A stretch of 14,084 nt of DNA from Candidatus Velthaea sp. Lineage in GTDB: Bacteria; Vulcanimicrobiota; Vulcanimicrobiia; Vulcanimicrobiales; Vulcanimicrobiaceae. The stretch lies in NCBI GenBank assembly GCA_050012475.1, contig JBEKHC010000118.1, positions 1 to 14,084 on the forward strand. The letters run 5' to 3'. The position numbers and the translations under genes were made by a program. Of the stretch, positions 1 through 13,483 are shown piece after piece. Under the pieces are notes generated by a model, which worked only from the letters and a program-made list of their open reading frames with translations, was not told where the DNA came from and did not search any database. Position 1 is the stretch's first letter. Each line of letters begins with the position of its first letter.

Positions 1-707
1 TCGACGATCGCGCGCGATGTGCGCAGCAGCTGCATGAGCACCAGCGCGATGATCACGCCGATGACAACCTCCCAGGTCGCCTCGACCCAGAAGTGCACGA
101 GCCACCACCACCAGTACTGATCGACCGCAAGATTCGTGATCGCCGGAAACGCAATCAGATACAGCCCGAAAAGTGGAATCAGATCGACCATCAGAACCCA
201 GACGATCCCTGAGACGCGGCGGGTCGCAATGGCCGTCCCGATGACGTTCCACAAAAATCCGCCGACGACCGCGACAACGCCGATCGCCGCCCAACGCGGC
301 GCTTCGACGTACTTGCGGCCTTGGTTGATGAACCACAGCGTAAACTCGTTGGCGGCGCCGGTTTGGACGAAGATAAAGACCACCGAAACGATGGCGACGG
401 CCGCGCAAAAAACCCAGAACAGGATCTCGCTGAAGCGGATTCCGACCAGTTCGCTCTCGAATTCGTCCGGCAACAGCCAGTAGAGCGATCCGAAAAACGC
501 CATCAGCAGCCCGATGATCAGCGTGTTGATGTGCAAGATCTTCACGATGCTGAACGGCAGCTGCGGGAACAGGAAATTCGGCGAGATATACATGATCGAA
601 GCCAGAATTCCGCTGGCGAAGAGGATCCCAAACAGAACCATCGAGGCGGTAAAGTAGCGCAGCGCCAAACGTTGGGACCGGTACAAGGTGGGTCGCGCGA
701 TATCCAT
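1..707 (-). CDS. norB: Nitric oxide reductase large (cytochrome b) subunit, cNOR type; 3' end lies outside the window
   Basis: Not in the ORF track because it is open at the window edge. Manual translation from ATG 707 (GGAG upstream): MDIARPTLYRSQRLALRYF...PFSIVKILHINTL...QGRKYVEAPRW...DQYWWWWLVHFWVEATWEV. Has the heme b His (LHIN) and the NOR signature WWxxHxWVExxWE. Directly downstream of norC. Confidence 0.96.
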   Translation of the reverse strand, partial: MDIARPTLYRSQRLALRYFTASMVLFGILFASGILASIMYISPNFLFPQLPFSIVKILHINTLIIGLLMAFFGSLYWLLPDEFESELVGIRFSEILFWVFCAAVAIVSVVFIFVQTGAANEFTLWFINQGRKYVEAPRWAAIGVVAVVGGFLWNVIGTAIATRRVSGIVWVLMVDLIPLFGLYLIAFPAITNLAVDQYWWWWLVHFWVEATWEVVIGVIIALVLMQLLRTSRAIV

Positions 708-722
708 CAGACGTTCTCCGCG

Positions 723-1316
723 TTATTGAGGTGTGGCATGCCCGAACGCGTTCGGGAAGCCGTTTGTATCGATCGAGGATAGCCACTTGAGATAGGCCAC
801 CGTCGCGCGGGCCTCGTCCTCGCTGAGGTTGAGATCCGGCATCTTGCGGTTCCAGGTGGCGTATTTCTCGGGGTGCATCAAGAACGCGACCATCGCCTCG
901 GCCCGGTCCGGCTTCTGCGTGAATGGGATCCAGACGTTATGCCAGGCGGGATCCAGCCATGCCTTAGTCAAGTCTGGGGCAAAATACGCACCGTTGCCGA
1001 AAAACGTATGGCAATCCATGCAAGCCCGGCTCTGAATGACGAGCTTGCCCTGGTGCAACAACGCCTCGGCTTCGTCCGCCGAATACTTCTTGCCGAAGAG
1101 CAACTCGGTGGCACCGATCGTCGGCACCCAGCCGCCGCGATCGTCGTCATACCGGTAGCCGATTTGTTGGTTGATGACCGTGTACGGCGGAACGTTCCTC
1201 CCGCCGGCTTGCATCGCGTCCAGTGAGTCAACCGTCAGGAAAATAAGCACGGCGACCATGACCGTAATAGAACTGATCGCGCCGGCGCGCCAAAACTTGG
1301 GATCATGGGTGAACAT
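723..1316 (-). CDS. norC: Nitric oxide reductase small subunit, membrane-anchored cytochrome c
   Basis: ATG at 1316 with GGAGG RBS (the ORF-track start at 1352 is probably too long). N-terminal TM helix, heme motif CMDCH, NorC-typical GNGAYFAPDLTK, axial Met region RKMPDLNL. Adjacent to norB. Confidence 0.95.
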   Translation of the reverse strand: MFTHDPKFWRAGAISSITVMVAVLIFLTVDSLDAMQAGGRNVPPYTVINQQIGYRYDDDRGGWVPTIGATELLFGKKYSADEAEALLHQGKLVIQSRACMDCHTFFGNGAYFAPDLTKAWLDPAWHNVWIPFTQKPDRAEAMVAFLMHPEKYATWNRKMPDLNLSEDEARATVAYLKWLSSIDTNGFPNAFGHATPQ

Positions 1317-1499
1317 CTGACGGCCTCCGATGCTTGCGCTCTGAGCACGCAAATCGGTATCGGTGGGTCACCCTCGGACCGCAGGGACGTTCGCCGAGAC
1401 GAGTACTTGACTGTCTACCACCAACTCGGTTGACGAGGAGGTCCCGTGTCGTGCAAGGCATGGATGTGTTCTCCTACCTGAGAGTCGCGATGTGTTGCA

Positions 1500-2783
1500 T
1501 TAGGGCATGCCGCGCAGCAGCGATACCGTACGCGTTGAATCCGGAGGTTCACGAAAGCTGACGGCGCGGCACGCGGCAATCGCGGCATTGATGACCATTG
1601 TGGTCCACGCGCAGAGTCCGGCGATCGCCGCTCCCGTCAAGAGCGTGGGCCAATTGAAAACCAGCGCGCAGGTCCCGCTCGCAACCGCCCCCTGGAAGAG
1701 CGCAAATGACGCCCAGCTCAGGGGCGCGACGAGCAGTTCGCCCGGCCGCGTTTCGTCGTCGTCACCGCGCGCGACCGTTGCGATCAGTCGAATGCCGATG
1801 TGATAGAGATGGCCATTGACCATCTGACCGAGCCAGCCGACGAGCAGGACGTAGACTGCCGCTGCGCCCGATGACGAACCGGCGGCAGCGCTAACGCTCA
1901 GTGCGAGCCCCCCGACGAGCCAGCCCGCCGCGACGCCCAAGAACGCCTGCGGCGGCCGGTGTCTAACGGTCGCGCGAAACAAAATGTCGAGCAGGTCGGC
2001 GACGTAAATGAGCGCGCCCAGCACGACTGCAAGTACGCCGATCCATTCGACCACCGGTGTGCGCAGCATCAGACCAATAGCAAAGAGCACCACACCGCCC
2101 ATCTCGCAGCCGCCAGCCGCGCTGTGCGCCCACGGCCGGCGCGAACGGGCGCCGGTAATCGGTCGCACGGTTCGCGTCGAGACGCCCATAACGAGGACCG
2201 TCAACCATCCGATCATGCCGAATGAAGCGTGAATCGGCGGCCCCGACATAAGCAGCGTGGCGGGACCGCCGGCGGCCAGCGCCCATGCGAGCGCCGCACC
2301 GATGAGAACCGTGATGAAGAGCGAGCCCAGCGTGATGAGCAAGGCGCGTGCGATTGCCGCTTCCGTTTTCGGTCCCGCGAGTACGGTCGACAGCGTTCTG
2401 CTCGCCGGAACCAGATACGACGCCAGCGCGAGGACGATGAGCGTTCCAGCCCATGGCAACACGGCGGTCGCACCGTTCCAGAAGCCGAAGACGAGCACGA
2501 TGACGGCCGTCTCAAAAATGAAGAGCGCACCTCGAGCGATTCGTTCGCCGGTCCAGGTCGCGTCGGTAAAGCCGGGAATGACGTGAACGAGGATTGCCAA
2601 CGCCGTCATCGTCAGCCAGCCCAGCGCGATGAGGTGCAACCAACCCAGTGCGGGTGCTCCCAGCGTGAACGGACGGTGCAGCGCCAAGACGAGCAGCAAA
2701 ATCCATGACGCGCCGTGCGCAAGCTGTCCGGCAACGAGCGCAACGGGCGGTATCCAATGCCGACGGCTCGGGGTGACTACCAT
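1500..2783 (-). CDS. Polytopic membrane protein (427 aa) with repeated H...GW helices; NnrS-like or heme-copper-oxidase-like fold suspected, function unknown
   Basis: ATG 2783 overlaps the TAA of the upstream gene (TAATG). About 12 hydrophobic segments. Repeated motifs WLHLIALGWLTM, IHASFGMIGWLTV and YVLLVGWLGQMVNGHLYH. Confidence 0.8.
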   Translation of the reverse strand: MVVTPSRRHWIPPVALVAGQLAHGASWILLLVLALHRPFTLGAPALGWLHLIALGWLTMTALAILVHVIPGFTDATWTGERIARGALFIFETAVIVLVFGFWNGATAVLPWAGTLIVLALASYLVPASRTLSTVLAGPKTEAAIARALLITLGSLFITVLIGAALAWALAAGGPATLLMSGPPIHASFGMIGWLTVLVMGVSTRTVRPITGARSRRPWAHSAAGGCEMGGVVLFAIGLMLRTPVVEWIGVLAVVLGALIYVADLLDILFRATVRHRPPQAFLGVAAGWLVGGLALSVSAAAGSSSGAAAVYVLLVGWLGQMVNGHLYHIGIRLIATVARGDDDETRPGELLVAPLSWASFALFQGAVASGTCALVFNWPTLLTGAAIAGLCAWTTMVINAAIAACRAVSFREPPDSTRTVSLLRGMP

Positions 2784-3238
2784 TACTGCACGCCCGGCGC
2801 CGGATGCCGCGGCGCGCGCACGCGTTGCCAGGCTACGAACACAAACAGCGCGATGGCTGCGGGTTGAGAGATGGCCGCCAGCGCTAAGAGTGTTGCCGCA
2901 ACGGGCGCATTTCCGCTCAATTGGTTCCATGGCGCCGCTCTAAGCCGTAACACCAGGCCGCTGTTGAGCAGCACGAAGCTCGTGCTGACAGCCAGGGTCG
3001 GATATCGGCCTTGCGTTACCGGAAAGCGTTCCCGATTGAGCGGCAGCATCCACAGCGCGATGCCGATGACGAGGTCTACCAGCCAGCCGACTTCGCCCAG
3101 GTGCGCGTGTTCGACAGAAAAAACATACGGCACGGAACGGCCCAACGCTTTAAGCACGAGAAGCACACCGCCCAACGCGAACGTCAGCACGAGATAGACC
3201 AAGCCGGTTTTCACGAAAATACGCGCTTCGCGAGGCAT
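2783..3238 (-). CDS. Four-helix membrane protein (151 aa) with HAHLxxxGW motif
   Basis: Four hydrophobic segments and the motif EHAHLGEVGWLVDLVIGIALWMLP. Starts 9 nt after the ferredoxin stop; its stop overlaps the next start. Confidence 0.82.
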   Translation of the reverse strand: MPREARIFVKTGLVYLVLTFALGGVLLVLKALGRSVPYVFSVEHAHLGEVGWLVDLVIGIALWMLPLNRERFPVTQGRYPTLAVSTSFVLLNSGLVLRLRAAPWNQLSGNAPVAATLLALAAISQPAAIALFVFVAWQRVRAPRHPAPGVQ

Positions 3239-3247
3239 CGGTCACCG

Positions 3248-3487
3248 TTACTTAAAGTAGTCGCTGTTGACGCCCGCATAGTGCTTCCACTTTTGTGGGA
3301 TGTCAGCATCAGCAAAGATGGCTTCGACGGGACAGGCCGGCACGCACGCCCCGCAGTCGATACACACGTCGGGGTCGATATAGAGCTGCGGATCGCCGTC
3401 AGTTCCGTGGATGCAGTCGACGGGACAAACGTCGACGCACGATTTATCTCTCGTGCCGATGCACGGTTCGGTAATGACATAGGGCAT
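3248..3487 (-). CDS. fdxA: 7Fe ([3Fe-4S][4Fe-4S]) ferredoxin, 79 aa
   Basis: MPYVITEPCIGTRDKSCVDVCPVDCI...CIDCGACVPACPVEAIF: C-x7-C-x3-CP plus CxxCxxCxxxCP, the pattern of Azotobacter/Thermus-type 7Fe ferredoxins. Start ATG 3487. Confidence 0.95.
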   Translation of the reverse strand: MPYVITEPCIGTRDKSCVDVCPVDCIHGTDGDPQLYIDPDVCIDCGACVPACPVEAIFADADIPQKWKHYAGVNSDYFK

Positions 3488-3639
3488 GCACTTACCGTGG
3501 AACCTTTCTGCTTGTCGTCGCCACATTCAAATCGCTCGTTTGCCTTGCACACTCGTCGATTCGCGCCGACTAATACATCGGGCGGGGTTAGCGAAAGCTT
3601 CAACAAAGCGGTGTCGTCAACGCGCTCGCAGGGAGCTGC

Positions 3640-4031
3640 GGTGTCGCAGCAATTGTAGTCCGGCGGCCTGTGAGGGTCATCCCAAGGCGTGACTGACGTC
3701 TTTTGCTGTGACGTCGAAAACGACCGGATGTATCGAGAGGGACAACCGCCGGCACTAAGAAGCCACGGTGCTGGGCGATGACCGAATAGTGCTGAGCGTT
3801 GACAGATGCTTGCGCCTTGCGGTACGGAAATGCGGGGATCGTGATTGCATAGATTGCGAACGCGACGATCAGCGTGAACCAGAACCAGTGACGCCGGATT
3901 CCGTAACCGCGCGCGGTGACAGCCGATTGTGCAAGTAGAGCGCTTTGCCGGTACTTGGCTAACCAAACAAGCAAGATGATCGCGCATAGGGCGACGATCA
4001 AAAAGATGTCTAAAACAGTCCTGCTATCCAG
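3640..4031 (-). pseudogene. Disrupted heme-copper oxidase subunit II-like (cupredoxin) gene
   Basis: GGAGG then CTG at 4031, two TM helices, then ...VPAVVPLDT. Removing one base near 3728 gives PVVFDVTAKDVSHALG (subunit II motif FxVTSxDVxH), followed by TGA at 3679-3677. Residual DPH/PDY codons follow in another frame. No CxExCGxxHxxM CuA motif found. Confidence 0.75.
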
Positions 4032-4076
4032 AGGCGCCTCCGTGGACGACGAGGATACAACGGGGAACTGCCCCAA

Positions 4077-4082
4077 AGTATA
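4077..4082 (-). promoter_or_regulatory. -10 element TATACT of a class II Crp/Fnr-activated promoter (predicted TSS about 4070)
   Basis: The plus strand reads AGTATA at 4077-4082. With a TSS at 4070 the FNR box centre (4111.5) falls at -41.5. Confidence 0.75.
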
Positions 4083-4104
4083 GTCGTCAGGCGGCTTCTT
4101 GGTA

Positions 4105-4118
4105 TTGATTTGAATCAA
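4105..4118. promoter_or_regulatory. FNR/DNR/NnrR-type binding site TTGAT-ttga-ATCAA
   Basis: Exact match to consensus TTGAT-N4-ATCAA, located between the divergent Crp/Fnr gene and the minus-strand nor gene string. Confidence 0.92.
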
Positions 4119-4163
4119 TGCGCATCAGCAGCGAAGCGGCTTAAAGTACACCGGAAGCGAGCG

Positions 4164-5093
4164 ATGAATCCGATCAATCCCGCACGGAGCCTCGACCTAC
4201 GATCGCTCCCGACTTGGGAACGTCACTCGCGCATTTTTGTCGCGTTTGATCAAATGCGCGAAGGAATGGCCCTGACCGTCATCACCGATCACGAGCCGCG
4301 CCCGCTGCGATTGCAATTCGAGCGGCTCTATCCGGATGAATTCGTCTGGGACCAGCGCCATCTGGGAATCGCCCGCTGGGAGGTAAGCCTGCGGCGGGCG
4401 CTGCCGATACCCGATCAGCGGGCATTTCTGCGACGTTGTGCACTGCTTTGTGACGCGAACGAAGAAACCGTAAGCGCGATCGACCAACGTTCGATCGCGC
4501 GGAATTTCAACGCTACCGAGGTGATCATCGAACAGGATACCCAGTGGCCGTATCTGGGGTTATTGCGAAGCGGCACACTCGCAGCCGTCGTCGGCGCAGC
4601 GAACGGTCGCGATCGGCAACTCTTCGACATTCTACCGGGCGACACGATCGGCGACATCGAGACCATCGACGGGGGTCGCTCGCTGGCGCATATTGCGGTA
4701 ACTTCAGCGGCTGCGCACGTCGTCTTGATTCCCCGTGGCATCGTTCTCTCGGCACTGCTTGAAGATGGAGTGTTTGCCCGGAAGTTGGCAACGATCTGCG
4801 CCCAGCGCGTGCGACTTCTAGGCGCACAGTTATCCCATGTTACCCAGCCGGCCGTTTCCCGCGTTGCGGCCGCTATACTCCCCTATGCGTCACCGGATGC
4901 CGGACTTTCCCCCGCCTTTGATGCATTGCAACGTATGACTCAAAATCAACTTGCGATCATTGCTGGAACAGCGAAGGAAGTTGCCGCTCGCGCCATTGCG
5001 GAATTGGAAGCGGCGGGCGCACTTCAACGCAACGAAGGTCACATTGCGCGAATCGATCGCGCAAAACTGCAGGCGTACGTGGTCGAGCAATAG
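4164..5093 (+). CDS. Crp/Fnr-family transcriptional regulator with N-terminal DUF2249-like domain (309 aa)
   Basis: N-terminus LDLRSLPTWERHSRIFVAFDQM...ITDHEPRPLRLQF...WEVSLRR resembles DUF2249. Central cNMP-binding-type beta-roll (ILPGDTIGDIETIDG). C-terminal HTH MTQNQLAIIAGTAKEVAARAIAELEAAGAL. ATG 4164 preferred because the ORF-track start at 4110 lies inside the FNR box. Confidence 0.9.
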   Translation: MNPINPARSLDLRSLPTWERHSRIFVAFDQMREGMALTVITDHEPRPLRLQFERLYPDEFVWDQRHLGIARWEVSLRRALPIPDQRAFLRRCALLCDANEETVSAIDQRSIARNFNATEVIIEQDTQWPYLGLLRSGTLAAVVGAANGRDRQLFDILPGDTIGDIETIDGGRSLAHIAVTSAAAHVVLIPRGIVLSALLEDGVFARKLATICAQRVRLLGAQLSHVTQPAVSRVAAAILPYASPDAGLSPAFDALQRMTQNQLAIIAGTAKEVAARAIAELEAAGALQRNEGHIARIDRAKLQAYVVEQ

Positions 5094-5412: not shown

Positions 5413-5694
5413 TCACGACGCGGAAGCGTCGTTTAGTGCGGACTGGGCCGCGTTCTGTAGTGCGCGGTACGAACGCTCCCACTGACCGTCGCGCGGTGTC
5501 GTAGAAGCGAGCCGGCGAAGCAACGCGTCATATACACGCTGTCGCTGCTGCGAATCGCGCAGATCGCGGACCACGCGCTCGTGCTCGAGCGCGTCCACGA
5601 GTTGCACCTTGCGGTACTGACAAACACCGATGCACGTTTGCGGGGCCTCGATATTCCCGCAGCCGATACACTTCCAGGCTTCTATCGTTTCCAT
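5413..5694 (-). CDS. Small hypothetical protein (93 aa) with N-terminal CxxC-x8-CxxxC cluster and helical C-terminus
   Basis: METIEAWKCIGCGNIEAPQTCIGVCQYRKVQLV... from ATG 5694. The upstream extension in the ORF track is low-complexity Arg-rich sequence and probably non-coding. Confidence 0.8.
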   Translation of the reverse strand: METIEAWKCIGCGNIEAPQTCIGVCQYRKVQLVDALEHERVVRDLRDSQQRQRVYDALLRRLASTTPRDGQWERSYRALQNAAQSALNDASAS

Positions 5695-6147
5695 AAGTTC
5701 GTACCGCCAAAGAAAATGGATGCGGTCGTGTCTTCTTCTAGTTTTGCGGGCAACCCCATCTCCTGCGCCGCGGGACCGACCTCGCGCGGCGGGCCGCCGC
5801 GAACCCGGCGGCAGGAATGCCGGGCGAAATCGCTCGAGTTCCGCCGCGACGGCCCGGGGCGTCACGATCTCCGCCAGTGCCTTTGGGCACTGTCGAGCGC
5901 GAGCCGATCGTCGACGCGTTGCCGCTCGAATCGGTCACGTTCAACTGGGCCAGATTGCGAGCATTGGGACGGCACGAACGATGCCCGACTGGGATTGGTC
6001 GGAGTAGCGACTGCCGCAAGTGTATCGTTGTGGGAATCCGTAGGTATAATATACTAATTATTAATGAGCCATTTAGGGAAGTCATACTTAGCCGAAAGGC
6101 TGGTACTTTTAGGAAAGTATTGGATCGGCATTCAGAATACGTCTAGT

Positions 6148-6447
6148 ATGAGTATGTTCTTTCCGCGTGGTCCCGAGTCGTGGAAAATCGAGAATCGCCT
6201 TGGCCGATTGCGCTTCGAGTATCAACTGGAAAACTCCGGCGAATCAGCGTGGACTCAGCGATTTGCGCTGTTTTTTAGCGCATTGATTTGGTTTGTTTTG
6301 GTCGCTTCTGTACTTTGTCTTTTGTTTGTCGTGGAAGTTAGCGTTAGTACAGGATTTTCGATCACTACGCTTTTCCGCTTTGTGTTTTCCCACTCACCGC
6401 AGAACTGGATCAGTTCGTTGGTGACTGTGTTCCAAGGCTTAGAATAG
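6148..6447 (+). CDS. Hypothetical small membrane protein in an AT-rich patch (start 6148, 6154 or 6064)
   Basis: One strong hydrophobic stretch (FALFFSALIWFVLVASVLCLLFVV). TATAAT at 6045-6050 upstream. No recognisable family. Confidence 0.4.
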   Translation: MSMFFPRGPESWKIENRLGRLRFEYQLENSGESAWTQRFALFFSALIWFVLVASVLCLLFVVEVSVSTGFSITTLFRFVFSHSPQNWISSLVTVFQGLE

Positions 6448-6825
6448 AGATGTTCCAAGAGCATTTCGCGGCATGCATCACTGACCAGGTGCCGGACTGG
6501 GGCGACACATCGAAAACGTACTTGCAGCACGAACAGTAGGCGACCTCGCCTCAACGGTGCCTTTGACGTCGTGACGTCGTGAAGGTCGGTTACTACGGAT
6601 CGCGTTATGCATGAACCACGGCTTTCGTGCCGCCGGGACCTCTGGAGCGCCTTGATCTCAGTCGGCCGGCACAACAACCTTCGGCCAGCCGTCGCCGACA
6701 ACCATTGATGCGCGGCAATACGCCGGTGCTCACATCCACGGACCGACCGGTACGGAGCGATTTCGCTCGCCGATCGAGCCTCGCCAACAACCATGCTCAG
6801 GTGCGGCTCTGAAACAGCACGCGGA

Positions 6826-7329
6826 TCACTTTGCGCGATCAATGCGCTCCGCTCTCCCTCGCTGGGCCTCGCCAACCGCATCTCGAATCCGCTTCAGGCG
6901 CGTTTCGGGCTTAACGGCCTCGTCGATGCGCCGGACGATGAAGTTCTGCCGACCGGGAGGGAGCGCTTTGAAGTCCCTCGTGGCTCCTTCCGCCCGCAGG
7001 GCGGAAAGTAAGTCGGCCGGGTACGTGACGGCTGCCCGGTCGAGGACTGTGATTCGCATATGCACCCGATCGCCGGTTTTCGTTCGCGTCTCTTTTCGAA
7101 CCTTGGCTTTGACGCGGATATAATGCTGGCCGCCCCCGACGGGAAACAGGCTTACCTTGAACGGCGCGGAGTCATTGAGACAGGCCATGACAAGAACAGA
7201 GCCGTGTGTCCCGAGAGCCTCGGTAATCGTTGCCGGAACCGGAACGGCGCAATAGTCCATTCCTTCCGCCCAATTTTCGAGCGTAGCTTCGAACGACAGT
7301 TGCTTGCCTGCGATAGGTGAGTTCTTCAC
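6826..7329 (-). CDS. DUF1905 domain plus YdeI/OmpD-associated (OmdA) domain protein
   Basis: FEATL...AVPVP...SLFPVGGGQHYIRVKAKVRK...GDRV (DUF1905-like), followed by PADLLSAL...FKALPPGRQ...IDEAVKPETRLKRI (OmdA-like). Confidence 0.88.
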   Translation of the reverse strand: MKNSPIAGKQLSFEATLENWAEGMDYCAVPVPATITEALGTHGSVLVMACLNDSAPFKVSLFPVGGGQHYIRVKAKVRKETRTKTGDRVHMRITVLDRAAVTYPADLLSALRAEGATRDFKALPPGRQNFIVRRIDEAVKPETRLKRIRDAVGEAQRGRAERIDRAK

Positions 7330-7777: not shown

Positions 7778-9361
7778 CTAACCACGAGGCGATTTTACCA
7801 TCGGAACCAGCAAATGCGAATCATAGTTCGCGCCCGTATAGATCGAATGCCGCCCTCGATTGACCGTCGGCTGATGACGGAAGGCCGGGTACGCGTCCGC
7901 ATCTTGACCGAGGACGTCGACGCGCAGAACCGATCCCGCCTCGAAGAGCGTGCTGGACGCGAGGATTTCAACGTCGACCGCAACGACGTCCCCCGGCGCG
8001 ACGGGATCGGCACGAAGGTGTGAATGCAGCGGCATGCCCGGGCGGCTGCGTTCTTCGTCCATCGCACGATGCGAAACGCGCAGCCAGCCCTTCGCGACGC
8101 CGTCGCGATCGAAGCCGTTGTATCCGTAGAAGAAAACTTCGCGGCCCGTAACGTCAAACTTGCGAAGCTTTACGAAGAGGTCGAGGTCCGCGCCGCGGCT
8201 CGTGGCAACCCAAAGCCGCAAACACATCGATCCGGTAAGTTCGGTGTCCGTCGCAAAGCGATGCGCAAACGTCGCGCGATGGGGTGATCGGCGGCGGCGC
8301 GTTCCGTAAGCGGCAACAGAAACGTCGGTCGAAGGCGCAAAGTCAAGCGCACGTTGTGCGGCATCGAGGTAGAGTGGCACATACGTGACGCTTGCGAGCG
8401 GCCATGCGTCTTCGGTGCGAATACTCCACCGCTCGAGCGACTCTCGGACCTCGAGCCGGACGCGCGGCGTGTCCTCCCAACCGTTGGCCTCACCCTTCAG
8501 AAAACGATCGAAGAAGCGCCGCTGCATATCGCGGGCCTCCTCGCTGTAGAACGTTTCCCACTTGCGCCTGCCGTGGGTGAACAACCACTTCCGTTGCGAC
8601 CGGAGCGCTTCAAAGCCAAGCAGCGACCCGCGCGTATGCAGGCCGTGATCCGCCCAGCCCGCGCAAACGAGCGCAGGCACACCAATGTTATCGAAGGCCG
8701 GTCTTTTGCTCTTCCACCAATCATCCTCGAACGGCCGTGCATCGCGTTCGCGGAGGAAATCCTCGGCCATGGAAAAGCGCCGGTTGTGCCCGCGCCGCAT
8801 GCGGATGTTCCACCACGTTGGCACAAACCCCGACTCACGCACGCCGTCTTGATAAGCGAACTCGCGCAGCAGATCGGTGGCACCCTCCCACGGAATCATT
8901 GCCTTGAGCGCCGGTGGCCGCAGCGCTGCGACGTTCCACTGCGACATCGCCAGATAGGAAACGCCGCAAAGGCCAACGACGCCGGTGGACCAGGGTTGGC
9001 GAGCGCACCACGCGATGAGTTCAGCGTAATCGTGCGCATCCGTCGGCGTCAACACGCCGGCCGCGCCTTCCGAACGGTGCATGCCGCGCACGTCGGCCTG
9101 CACGACGTTGTACCCCGCGCGCACCCAGAACACCGGATCGGGCGACTCGAACCCGGTCCGACGCGAACACGCCAACCTGCCGAAGCGCACGCCGGCCAGT
9201 CGCATGAGCGTCATGCCGATGCGATCGGGCAGCTTGTCCTTGCCGTACGGCGTGACGGACAGGACGACGGGATGCGGCGCCTTATCCTCCGGACGATAGA
9301 CGTTCAAGAAAAGGCGCACGCCGTCGCGCATCTCAACGGCAACGTCACGCGTAATTTTCAC
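7778..9361 (-). CDS. CocE/NonD family hydrolase (peptidase S15-like)
   Basis: GTG start with GGAGG RBS. Motifs MRDGVRL, TPYGKD, DVRGMHRSEG, nucleophile elbow GVSYLA and GWAD, plus a C-terminal PepX-like domain (ELTG...DLDLFV...GWLRVSHR). Confidence 0.93.
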   Translation of the reverse strand: MKITRDVAVEMRDGVRLFLNVYRPEDKAPHPVVLSVTPYGKDKLPDRIGMTLMRLAGVRFGRLACSRRTGFESPDPVFWVRAGYNVVQADVRGMHRSEGAAGVLTPTDAHDYAELIAWCARQPWSTGVVGLCGVSYLAMSQWNVAALRPPALKAMIPWEGATDLLREFAYQDGVRESGFVPTWWNIRMRRGHNRRFSMAEDFLRERDARPFEDDWWKSKRPAFDNIGVPALVCAGWADHGLHTRGSLLGFEALRSQRKWLFTHGRRKWETFYSEEARDMQRRFFDRFLKGEANGWEDTPRVRLEVRESLERWSIRTEDAWPLASVTYVPLYLDAAQRALDFAPSTDVSVAAYGTRRRRSPHRATFAHRFATDTELTGSMCLRLWVATSRGADLDLFVKLRKFDVTGREVFFYGYNGFDRDGVAKGWLRVSHRAMDEERSRPGMPLHSHLRADPVAPGDVVAVDVEILASSTLFEAGSVLRVDVLGQDADAYPAFRHQPTVNRGRHSIYTGANYDSHLLVPMVKSPRG

Positions 9362-11233: not shown

Positions 11234-11274
11234 ATTTATGTTGAGAGATCTTTCATTTACGTTGAGAGATCTTT
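11234..11274 (+). repeat. Tandem duplication, 2 x 20 bp (ATTTAYGTTGAGAGATCTTT), of the LysR gene 3' end
   Basis: Copies at 11234-11253 and 11255-11274 with one mismatch. The second copy contains the last codons and the TAA of the LysR gene. Confidence 0.9.
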
Positions 11275-12171
11275 GGCGACGATCAAAAGTTGAGCTCGCA
11301 GCCAGTTGTGAGCCGCATCGTCTCGCAGCCGCCGGTGCCAAGCCATACGATAGGCAATCTTGGGTAGTTCACGAGGCGCGGCCAGGAGGCGGACGTGGGC
11401 AACGGGAGCCAGTTGCTTTGCCAGACGGCGTGCTGTCGTACAGATCATGTCGGTGCGCGAGGCGGCGAGTATCGCCGATAGTTGATAGGGCGAACGATAA
11501 GCGACGCGCCGTTCGAACCCATTTGCCGCCAGGGCGCGTTCGATCCACGGTTGAGTACCATCTCTGCCGATAGCGACGACGGCGTGCCCATACTCGACGT
11601 AGCGCTTGAGGGTCAGGCGCGACGCACGAAGCGGATGGTTCTCGGCGACGACGCAAACGAATTCATCTGAGAAAAGAGCCTCACTTTCAAACGGCTCCGG
11701 CGGCTGGACACCGATCAGAGCCAGATGGATGCGGCCGGCTTCCATCTCGTTGAAGACCCGGTCGTTCCAGGGTAAGACTTCGATTCGGATGGACGGTGCG
11801 GCGTTTGCAAAATGCTCGAGCACGGTCGGAATGAGAACCGACGCGGCGTAATCGGTCGTTGCGATGTAGAGGCGGTCTCCGCTCGTCGCCGGGTCAAACC
11901 GATTGCCGCGTACCGCGGCGTCCAAGCGTGGGAGCAGAGCTTGCAAGTCGACGAGCAACTGATCGCCGCGCGGCGTTCGTTCGTACGCGCCGCCAGAACG
12001 GACCAGCAGTTCGTCGTCAAGCGCGCTCCGCAGCCGTTCAAGCGCGCGACTCATCGCCGACTGGCTCATGTCGCAACGGCGCGCGGCACGCGTTACATGG
12101 CGCTCGTCGAGCAGTGCGTAGAGCGGCTCGACAAGACTTAGGTCAAGGCTTCTAATATGCGGAAACTGCAT
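11257..12171 (-). CDS. LysR-family transcriptional regulator (NodD/LeuO-like substrate-binding domain); start 12171 or 12180
   Basis: HTH LDLSLVEPLYALLDERHVTRAARRCDMSQSAMSRALERLR, then LLVR...TPRG, FDPATS, TDYA and WHRR...DAAHNWLR. Confidence 0.95.
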   Translation of the reverse strand: MQFPHIRSLDLSLVEPLYALLDERHVTRAARRCDMSQSAMSRALERLRSALDDELLVRSGGAYERTPRGDQLLVDLQALLPRLDAAVRGNRFDPATSGDRLYIATTDYAASVLIPTVLEHFANAAPSIRIEVLPWNDRVFNEMEAGRIHLALIGVQPPEPFESEALFSDEFVCVVAENHPLRASRLTLKRYVEYGHAVVAIGRDGTQPWIERALAANGFERRVAYRSPYQLSAILAASRTDMICTTARRLAKQLAPVAHVRLLAAPRELPKIAYRMAWHRRLRDDAAHNWLRAQLLIVAKDLST

Positions 12172-12193
12172 GGCCTTCATGCCAAATGTGCAT
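12157..12193. promoter_or_regulatory. Two LysR-type T-N11-A palindromes (ATGC-N7-GCAT)
   Basis: ATGCggaaactGCAT at 12157-12171 and ATGCcaaatgtGCAT at 12179-12193, 22 bp apart, overlapping the LysR start and upstream of the divergent genes. Confidence 0.7.
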
Positions 12194-12239
12194 CCAGCGA
12201 ATGGAGTGATCCTGCCTATCGCCGGGAAAGACTCGAACA

Positions 12240-12620
12240 ATGGATCCGCCGAATCGGGATGTGGCAGCGCTTTCAGCGGTTTTTTTCAGCGGGCAGCGCG
12301 CCGGAATGATGCTGGCTCTCGGGGTCGCTCAGGTGGCGACGGCAGATCTGCCCGAAGAGAGTTGGATGTTGCGGCAACAAGCCGATGACTCGCTCTTTCG
12401 TAAGGTCATGCCGGTGGTGTTCGCGTTGAATGTCCTGAACCTGAGCCCGGCAATTGCGACATCCGAAAAACGCGGAAATCGCTCCTTCGGCGCGGCAGGA
12501 GCATTCTCGATCGGCGCGATTGCCGACACCATGCTGGTCAACGTGCCGCTCACTGTGACGATGTCGGCTTGGAAAGCGGGCGCTGCACTCCCTCTCTCCG
12601 CTGCCGGCATGCGAGGCTAA
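12240..12620 (+). pseudogene. DUF1772 (anthrone oxygenase-like) membrane protein, apparently degenerate and C-terminally truncated
   Basis: Motifs RKVMP and TMLVNVPL...W resemble DUF1772. The ORF ends at AGMRG without the usual final W...H/N..R helix and has polar residues inside expected TM segments (SGQRAG, AIADTM). Confidence 0.55.
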
Positions 12621-12622
12621 CC

Positions 12623-13483
12623 TTGAAGATCTTCGTTGTCGGCGGTACGGGACTCGTGGGTTCGGCTGTCGTTCGGGAATTATTGCGTCGAAACGCCGAC
12701 GTTCGGCTGCTCGTGCGCGATGCTACGACCGCCGTACCGAGCGGTGTCGACGTGATGGTTGGGGACTTGCTGGATCCGCCGGCCGTCGATCGTGCGATGA
12801 AAGGTTGCGATAAGCTTTACCTCCTCAATGCGGTGACGCCCGACGAGGTTACGCAGGGGCTCGTCGCCTTCGATCTAGCGAAGCGCCACCGGTTCGCGCA
12901 TGTCGTTTACCATTCCGTATTTCGCGTGGACCGATTCCTTGATGTACCGCATTTCGCATCCAAATTTGCGATAGAGTCGGCGCTTCGTCAATTTGACGTT
13001 CCGTGGACGATTCTCCGGCCGAACTATTTCTTTCAGAACGACGCGACCCTACGCGACCCGCTGACCGCTGCGGGCATCTATCCACAGCCGCTTGGAGACA
13101 CGGGTATCTCTGCGGTCGACGTTCGCGATATTGCTGAAGCCGCCGCGATTGCCCTAACGACCAAAGGTCACGAGGGTAAGGTTTACAATCTCAACGGTCC
13201 GGCGCTCCTCAGCGGTCCCACGGCGGCAGCCATTTGGGGCGAGATTCTTGGCCGGAAGGTGCGTTACGGCGGCCACGACATGGACGCATTCGAGACAGCA
13301 ATGCGAGAGCGCGCACCGGCGTGGTCAGCGTTTGACATCCGCATGATGTATCAGGGTTACCTCGAGCGCGGTTTCGCGGCGGAGCCCGGCGACATCGAGA
13401 CCCTTACGGCCCTCCTGGGCCATGCGCCGAGAACCTATGAAGCCTTTGCGCGCGATTGCGCGGACAGATGGAGAATACAATGA
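12623..13483 (+). CDS. NmrA-family (atypical SDR) NAD(P)-binding oxidoreductase
   Basis: TTG start at 12623 with GAGG RBS. Rossmann motif KIFVVGGTGLVGS, plus PHFASK, WTILRPNYFFQN, VDVRDIAEAAA and YNLNGP. Confidence 0.93.
   Translation: MKIFVVGGTGLVGSAVVRELLRRNADVRLLVRDATTAVPSGVDVMVGDLLDPPAVDRAMKGCDKLYLLNAVTPDEVTQGLVAFDLAKRHRFAHVVYHSVFRVDRFLDVPHFASKFAIESALRQFDVPWTILRPNYFFQNDATLRDPLTAAGIYPQPLGDTGISAVDVRDIAEAAAIALTTKGHEGKVYNLNGPALLSGPTAAAIWGEILGRKVRYGGHDMDAFETAMRERAPAWSAFDIRMMYQGYLERGFAAEPGDIETLTALLGHAPRTYEAFARDCADRWRIQ

Follow-up and report, generated by a model that had tools for sequence, protein, structure and literature searches.

The stretch analyzed here, hereafter the window, is an entire contig of 14,084 nt (JBEKHC010000118.1) from a 5.36-Mb, 93.8%-complete genome of Candidatus Velthaea sp., and its first 5,093 nt carry a string of minus-strand genes ending in a cytochrome c-type nitric oxide (NO) reductase (cNOR). 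A perfect FNR/DNR-type box, TTGAT-N4-ATCAA (4105-4118), lies between divergent genes. On its minus-strand side follow a pseudogene for an sNOR-type CuA subunit II (3680-4031), a 79-aa 7Fe-type (FdxA-like) ferredoxin (3248-3487), a 151-aa, four-helix membrane protein with an HxH motif (2783-3238), a 427-aa, 12-helix membrane protein with homology to heme-copper oxidases (HCOs) and likeness to NnrS that lacks a catalytic ligand set (1500-2783), norC (723-1316) and the 5′ part of norB (1-707). A DUF2249-Crp/Fnr fusion regulator is encoded on the plus strand (4164-5093). The 151-aa and 427-aa genes, here called the pair, are coupled by a stop/start overlap (TAATG). A preliminary description of this DNA had listed the gene string, the TAATG coupling and the box, and all of these parts are where it placed them.

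Named homologues of the window genes belong to Eremiobacterota (Vulcanimicrobiaceae and relatives). Six sequencing runs containing at least half of the window's words are all soil or peat metagenomes from five studies, and four of them cover a near-identical metagenome locus, L157. In the labels used below, G000 is the window's genome, other G numbers are genomes of the phylum, L numbers are metagenome loci and X numbers are metagenome data sets. Comparisons drew on a phylum sample of 250 genomes (tallies count the unpublished G048 and G234, the regulator tally also G022, G059, G024 and G262), on 40 genomic regions around 52 non-self matches to the 151-aa family (weaker matches and the unpublished G048 excluded), and on 29 metagenome loci found with the 427-aa protein, among which L157 is of the same species as the window. 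The genomes are kin rather than independent, and no P value is claimed for the association counts.

The subunit II remnant noted in the preliminary description is real, but it belongs to a lost reductase of another type, and its recognizable part ends near 3680. Its frame likely starts at a CTG codon (4031), acquires an extra base near 3728 and meets a stop soon after; the CuA-binding half is not recognizable, and the segment 3520-3680 aligns no better than shuffled sequence (92 of 500 shuffles score as high). Over 94 aa, the remnant and the intact subunit II of L129 share 54% identity; at the DNA level, the remnant is 82% identical to L174, and contigs of X3 and X4, from two studies, bear the same lesion without gaps. 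No sNOR subunit I was found in the window's genome. Intact homologues precede a subunit I that has H-x3-N, Y+4, Y+11 and T319 but lacks Ser at the S309 site (11 sequences of each subunit), and comparison with Dataset S1 of Murali 2024 (PMC11214002) shows Asn in place of the active-site Tyr, as in sNOR. By these residues, the neighboring subunit I appears to be sNOR-type. We use this wording because the sNOR marker E255 is V or A (N+12) in all 11 subunit I proteins. The assignment is supported by Dataset S6 of that work, in which the 21 Eremiobacterota rows listed include sNOR but no e-, b-, n- or gNOR. In Murali 2024, sNOR is a proposed NO reductase whose activity was not assayed.

The sister locus L158 (84% DNA identity) carries collinear subunit II scraps between box and ferredoxin, with a qNOR gene behind its 427-aa gene. 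Because these scraps are retained at the same place, the subunit II gene was already present in the common ancestor of the window and L158 loci.

The interval between the 427-aa gene and norC (1317-1499), in which the preliminary description saw nothing of this kind, contains a likely 5′ scar of a qNOR gene (1418-1477, minus strand), comprising a ribosome-binding site, an ATG at 1461 and about 15 decayed codons. In L158-L160 the 427-aa gene is followed by a qNOR gene, to whose start the scar aligns unbroken before the window sequence diverges into the norC leader. The alignment scores 47, whereas none of 2000 shuffles exceeds 28; taken alone, the coding part falls short of significance (25 vs 27). 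The qNOR gene of L159 matches PF22085 at 77 bits and has no CxxCH. On this evidence, the operon likely hosted sNOR and qNOR before cNOR. The simplest history, its order being inferred, would place sNOR in front and qNOR behind; sNOR would then have decayed, and a cNOR originating within the phylum would have taken the place of qNOR.

Partner enzymes vary among the loci surveyed. The window's norC is 44-68% identical to that of 70 norC loci, 68 of which have norB behind it; a 151-aa homologue occurs in none of the 70 and a distant 427-aa homologue in one. Three other genomes of the phylum sample encode cNOR, none with the pair within 10 kb, and all three hold a 427-aa gene somewhere. Among the 29 metagenome loci, cNOR follows the 427-aa gene only in L157. 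The preliminary description had proposed a conserved module around cNOR and had offered a lack of linkage in other genomes as grounds for abandoning that view; the survey found just such a lack.

Other heme-copper enzymes accompany the pair more often. An HCO subunit I gene lies within about 10 kb in 16/40 genome loci (11 sNOR-type, 5 CcoN and 2 A-family, overlapping), against a rough expectation of 1.0-1.3 of 40 that assumes 4-5 such genes per 3-Mb genome. In 9/29 metagenome loci, which are close kin, the CcoN gene begins no more than 64 nt from the 427-aa gene, and in 3/29 the qNOR gene does. The 427-aa gene is present in 31/33 sNOR genomes vs 50/217 others, and sNOR lies within 5 kb of a pair member in 14 of those 33; heme-synthesis-type radical SAM genes are nearby in 8/40 loci. 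The suggestion that the upstream genes are accessory factors therefore survives in altered form: they are tied to heme-copper enzymes of NO or low-oxygen metabolism but are not specific to cNOR, as the pair goes with sNOR, cbb3 and qNOR. Because a broken sNOR-type gene and a likely qNOR scar lie beside the present cNOR, the reductase is likely a replaceable passenger of the pair rather than its fixed partner.

The box is the sole match in the window with at most one mismatch (0.20 expected; 36/200 shuffles reach one), and perfect boxes are not enriched across the genome (3 seen vs 2.5 expected). We take it as real because of its position and conservation, not its rarity. On the minus strand, the hexamer TATACT (4077-4082) sits 22 nt from the box and forms the -10 element of a predicted class II promoter, with a start near 4070 and the box centered near -41.5. 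The account of class II FNR-type promoters in PMC7713065 places the box near -41.5, overlapping the -35 region; the box-to-hexamer spacing agrees with that layout, the start site being predicted from the spacing itself. An exact box occurs in 12/29 metagenome loci, and in all 12 (eight being close kin and one, L157, of the same species) a TAnnnT hexamer lies toward the operon at a distance of 22 nt. Box and TAnnnT hexamer also recur in genomes G222 and G196, with a spacing of 21 nt in G196. Since the box and its -10 spacing are conserved across loci, the box very likely drives the minus-strand string.

Toward the regulator, a weak, possible -10 hexamer, TAAAGT (4142-4147, plus strand), lies 23 nt from the box; it was seen only in the window and L157 and is not retained in the other 11 box-bearing loci. 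A genome-wide regulon was considered and rejected: of 848 degenerate box matches, 12 are accompanied by a -10 hexamer at a spacing of 21-23 nt, and among these the exact matches number two, both of them this box in one or the other orientation. A promoter and terminator scan stayed at chance level, and no structured RNA is supported ahead of norC (z -0.2). The window's norC has no box of its own upstream, vs an exact box within 300 nt of 13/69 related norC genes. Capture of norCB by the upstream promoter is plausible on these grounds.

The regulator carries DUF2249, cNMP and HTH_Crp_2 domains, all above Pfam cut-offs, which confirms the fusion; the local regulator and box of the preliminary description thus stand and gain a predicted class II promoter with recurring -10 spacing. 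It lacks the four-cysteine motif of FNR, and no Cys is invariant among 15 aligned homologues, so it is not FNR proper. No DNR or NnrR model matches it, and NCBIfam yields only weak FtrB, YeiL and CRP matches. Its recognition helix reads K-E-V-A-A-R, and among the genome's 13 Crp-family matches it alone has Glu181 and lacks Arg180, a combination that goes with TTGA boxes in Rodionov 2005 (PMC1274295). Box and -10 hexamer lie upstream of 3/3 regulators with a TAKEVAAR helix; among 27 more distant regulators, two have a box at one mismatch, with no -10 hexamer.

Fusion homologues occur in 180/181 genomes of the class vs 0/69 other genomes of the phylum sample, and for this reason one DUF2249-Crp copy looks like a class-wide core regulator. 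A second fusion in the same genome (contig C49, 21983-22930) is 32% identical and has the helix R-D-M-A-A-R; the window's copy is an accessory paralogue. DUF2249 proteins DrpA and DrpB are linked to nitrogen-oxide sensing in Thermus (PMC6282519), and DUF2249 proteins are induced during haloarchaeal denitrification (PMC11218638). By analogy, these links would fit an NO or low-oxygen signal. Separately, the 732-aa database protein P0046 joins a DUF2249-Crp regulator to a 427-aa protein, either as a true fusion or through a gene-calling artefact.

The ferredoxin matches Fer4 and contains the motifs Cx7Cx3CP and CxxCxxCxxxCP; FdxA models match it below their cut-offs. Inspection revealed no signal or membrane segment, and cNOR receives its electrons from the periplasmic side (Murali 2024, PMC11214002). 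For these two reasons, the ferredoxin is unlikely to be the electron donor to cNOR, a role that had been suggested for it.

No Pfam or NCBIfam model matches the window's own 427-aa or 151-aa protein, and sequence comparison of both families with solved structures gave nothing significant. The AlphaFold model of the 427-aa protein has 12 helices (pLDDT 94.8) and superposes on cbb3 subunit I with a VIA Z of 34.3 and a root-mean-square deviation of 3.3 over 390 aligned residues, with which Foldseek concurs; cNOR NorB follows at Z 33.4, and the next unrelated fold lies at Z 10.1. The protein is thus predicted to have an HCO fold. A comparison of its family profile with a CcoN gives a probability of 1.5%, although H185 falls opposite the helix VI His. 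Within the protein, units 1 and 2 are repeats of one another (probability 90%). Six histidines are kept among 95 family members (H50, H185 and H328 in 95, H220 in 94, H275 and H325 in 92). H50 in helix 2 and H185 in helix 6 are the only two at unit-equivalent sites, and helix order would place H220, H275, H325 and H328 on the cytoplasmic face. The helix VII His pair is absent and Y or F at 311 replaces the helix X HxH, so that the six histidines of a catalytic HCO/NOR subunit I are not all there. The NnrS profile PF05940 hits 0/95 members at E up to 0.1; in fold space, the nearest Atlas clusters are auto-named NnrS-family (TM 0.91), and true NnrS domains reach TM 0.83.

The 151-aa protein is likely a single HCO unit, as several weak but consistent signals suggest. 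COX1 is matched weakly by 47/79 family members (best E 2e-4), and the family profile aligns with the 427-aa protein at unit 2 (probability 84%, E 7e-6). A fold search with its model returned generic four-helix bundles best (Z 10.4), with HCO chains at Z 9.3 and 7.8. H44 and H46 are invariant in 79 close homologues; among 129 distant ones, H46 is kept in 126 and H44 in 55. The family comprises 932 representatives at E up to 0.001. The window's pair keeps all invariant residues except for E102, which is A in the 151-aa protein. Elsewhere in the genome, on contig C89 (19622-21063), a paralogous pair has the first 90 codons of its large gene inverted, through either rearrangement or an assembly artefact; L159 and L160 show a similar inversion.

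norC encodes a membrane-anchored mono-heme cytochrome c subunit (Pfam Cytochrom_C; CxxCH at 99, KMP at 158) and directly precedes norB with a 15-nt gap. The 235 aa of norB in the window (Pfam COX1, E 4e-18) end with the contig, and contigs of X1 and X4 continue past this point, that of X1 with norB sequence (30 letters). An apparently truncated norB in L157, which runs into a DUF1848 gene (joint L157:4899), was rejected as a likely assembly chimera, as the X1 and X4 contigs continue past the joint and X1 does so with norB. The window's norB has H59, H205, E209 and E213, and the L157 norB (99% identical) adds E242, H256, H257, E278 and H288. The FeB site defined by H207, E211, E215, H258, H259 and E280 of Pseudomonas aeruginosa is therefore complete, its first three residues in the window and the others in L157, and there is no cross-linked Tyr. 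The helix X heme ligands H347/H349 (P. aeruginosa numbers) fall beyond the contig end and are present in the relative L035.

The NorD-docking acidic sites D220/E222 correspond to S231 and A233 in the window's norB, and the channel sites I244/F290 to E and H in L157 and all 64 aligned relatives. Non-acidic docking sites combined with hydrophilic channel residues characterize NorQD-independent cNORs in Appelgren and Adelroth 2025 (PMC12067857), and by its residues the window's cNOR is of this known type. The preliminary description had suggested looking for norQ or norD beyond norB, but the contig ends inside norB; the 93.8%-complete genome gave no norQ (CbbQ_C) match over cut-off, and norD was not searched for. 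The genome likewise gave no match over cut-off for the NirK, NirS and NarG families (NapA and flavohemoglobin were not searched for) and none to a NosZ query. Because no norQ, nir, narG or nosZ was found in this 94%-complete genome, the cNOR likely serves NO detoxification. Import of norCB from another phylum is not supported: a quick, non-bootstrapped tree of 69 rows, from which L025 and other rows short of norB were excluded, groups it with six other Eremiobacterota NorCB rows (SH-aLRT 99).

Two further features of related loci were observed. A conserved membrane protein of about 100 aa with no Pfam match lies directly behind norB in L006, L007, L008, L011, L024, L029, L031 and L039 and is possibly, by analogy, a third subunit like Thermus NorH. 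On the Eremiobacterota contig L035:4646-17410, genes for both sNOR-type subunits (I and II) occur together with a radical SAM gene of the heme-synthesis type, a divergent norCB and a nosZ cluster. Where P. aeruginosa NorB has E135, which we take to be a calcium ligand, the window's NorB has Lys (residue 132); Lys stands there in 37/66 aligned NorB.

We propose, with a probability of about 0.6, that the string is an FNR-box operon whose stable core, the ferredoxin and the HCO-related pair, likely tends iron and heme for NO-exposed heme-copper enzymes while the reductase has likely been exchanged, sNOR and qNOR having come earlier and cNOR now. The proposal builds on the observed gene layout, box-to-hexamer spacing, sNOR pseudogene and varying partners and on the predicted HCO fold; the mechanistic steps are conditional throughout. 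Under low oxygen or NO, the neighboring DUF2249-Crp regulator likely activates the operon: its dimer would bind the box at about -41.5, and a transcript starting near 4070 would pass through the subunit II pseudogene and then the genes of the ferredoxin and the pair. This transcript would probably continue into norCB, which has no box of its own. The 427-aa protein would be unable to reduce O2 or NO in the manner of an HCO; it likely binds one heme via H50/H185 and likely holds a metal in its cytoplasm-facing H220, H275, H325 and H328 group, kept reduced by the ferredoxin. The 151-aa protein likely oligomerizes into the same fold and binds heme via H46. The cNOR likely removes NO from outside the cell and releases N2O, and no nitrite, nitrate or N2O reductase was found in the genome.

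Several observations weigh against this proposal. The box is confined to one subclade, stands upstream of just 2/40 genes for the 151-aa protein and precedes 0/16 other sNOR subunit II genes. A transcript reaching norC would have to read through 2.7 kb, and an internal sigma70-like site lies at 3680-3652, at chance level (1 seen, 1.2 expected). The departure at E255 concerns the assignment to sNOR, the qNOR scar spans just about 60 nt, and an sNOR subunit I joined to the 151-aa gene in L174 (joint L174:649) was discarded as a likely assembly chimera. As to the association, 50 genomes hold the 427-aa gene with no sNOR found, no HCO gene is nearby in 24/40 loci, and kinship among the genomes means that 31/33 overstates independence. 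The cluster was not found in 3/3 other genomes of the genus, and the window's own genome is 93.8% complete. The metal and heme sites of the pair, finally, are deduced from conservation and helix order.

One narrower explanation, that the pair is a dedicated loader of active-site metal or heme for NorQD-less heme-copper enzymes (sNOR, qNOR, this type of cNOR and cbb3), appears doubtful to us. It would explain why each new reductase landed beside the pair, and it draws on the four HCO types adjoining the pair, the 427-aa gene in 31/33 sNOR genomes and all three other cNOR genomes, the norQ not found in the window's genome and the room that Appelgren and Adelroth 2025 (PMC12067857) leave for unknown chaperones. 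That same source, however, explains NorQD independence via a hydrophilic channel, and this NorB has both channel residues; the pair is nearby in 0/70 loci of this cNOR clade (loci, not whole genomes, having been searched), and the 50 genomes with the 427-aa gene and no sNOR found also speak against it. The same low credence goes to its broadest form, in which the pair is a general ferredoxin-driven cofactor-loading station for such enzymes and the operon a socket for sNOR, qNOR, cNOR or cbb3, with three NO-reductase families succeeding one another behind one promoter.

Equally tentative is the idea that the pair and ferredoxin form a cytoplasm-facing, NnrS-like scavenger of NO or nitrosothiols, working in parallel to any reductase. 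The NnrS-family names of the nearest Atlas clusters (TM 0.91, vs 0.83 for true NnrS domains), the place of nnrS as a core member of NO regulons and the conserved histidines, which by the inferred topology would lie on the ferredoxin's side, all favor it; the 0/95 result with PF05940 does not, and with the O2 reductase CcoN adjoining in 9/29 loci, low oxygen is indicated no less than NO.

A fixed cNOR accessory operon, with upstream genes serving NorCB specifically, is very improbable. The genes are co-oriented, contigs of independent studies bridge the 427-aa/norC junction, and no separate box precedes norC, vs the 13/69 related genes with an exact one within 300 nt; the linkage, however, is seen in this species only, sNOR is the source of the remnant, qNOR occupies this site in a sister lineage, and the neighborhood survey largely refutes such an operon. 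Hardly any credence is due to a decaying island, a rearrangement hotspot where norCB, with a promoter to itself, is a chance neighbor and the upstream operon has lost its use: the pseudogene and scar in the window, the C89 pair broken by inversion, the inversions and truncated qNOR in relatives and the cluster's absence from the searches of 3/3 congeners point that way, but the regulator, the ferredoxin and the pair are intact, as are the box and -10 element, invariant residues are kept except for E102 to A, and norB is whole in two studies.

Taken singly, the parts of the operon all belong to known kinds. Pei, Li, Kinch and Grishin reportedly described in 2014 a set of HCO-homology (HCOH) proteins including NnrS, with three-unit, 12-helix members bearing about two conserved His and single-unit, four-helix members bearing a helix-2 His. 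Going by this definition, the 427-aa protein is alike in its 12-helix HCO fold and reduced histidine set, and the 151-aa protein in being a separate four-helix, single-unit gene. The pair differs in that it does not match the Pfam NnrS profile, the single-unit gene is coupled to the three-unit one, and an extra conserved histidine group lies late in helix 10; DUF2249 is here fused to a Crp regulator, and the operon has no DUF59 or hemerythrin gene. A DUF2249 neighborhood and a context of NO and denitrification genes are common to both, according to the second-hand account in PMC11218638.

The reductase resembles the Thermus-type NorQD-independent cNOR (PMC12067857) in having NorC and NorB, the checkable FeB and heme ligands, non-acidic D220/E222 sites, E/H at I244/F290 and no norQ found; it differs in belonging to a mesophilic peat-soil Eremiobacterota clade, in the Lys at the E135 position and in the lack of detected nir genes. 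The remnant is homologous to the CuA subunit II genes that precede the B-family-derived subunit I of sNOR, with Asn for the cross-linked Tyr (PMC11214002), but here only a broken subunit II remains, and the relatives' subunit I lacks the E255 marker. The regulator shares with DNR, NnrR and HcpR (Rodionov 2005, PMC1274295) the lack of an Fe-S cysteine motif, Glu181 with Arg185 and the TTGAT-N4-ATCAA site, and differs by Lys at 180. DUF2249 is tied to nitrogen-oxide sensing in Thermus DrpA/DrpB as well (PMC6282519), whereas here it shares one chain with Crp. Neither this Eremiobacterota module nor its separate features (coupled pair, DUF2249-Crp fusion, association with sNOR, succession of reductases) came up in a literature search, most subscription papers lying outside it.

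These observations bear on HCO-homology proteins, which are without established chemistry: given the 31/33 genome association and operon adjacency in 14, the pair is a candidate helper for sNOR. They also bear on the open question of how NorQD-less reductases obtain iron. The locus also offers a compact natural record of how NO reductases that are unrelated have likely taken one another's place under a single switch; it relates to the question of why several NOR families persist in microbes. In addition, a peat bacterium that has an orphan cNOR and in which no nosZ was found would be a possible N2O source.

The remainder of the contig holds ordinary genes: DUF1905/OmdA (6826-7329), a CocE/NonD-like hydrolase (7778-9361), a DUF900 hydrolase (to 10852) and a LysR gene (11257-12240) divergent from an NmrA-like gene (12569-13483). 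G+C content falls to 55% near 5500-7000. Convergent with the regulator gene, a 94-aa open reading frame (5413-5697, minus strand) encodes four cysteines (CxxC-x8-CxxxC) followed by a helical tail; it has no Pfam match, is 90% identical in L159 and resembles Atlas clusters of uncharacterized Pseudomonadota proteins (score 0.96).

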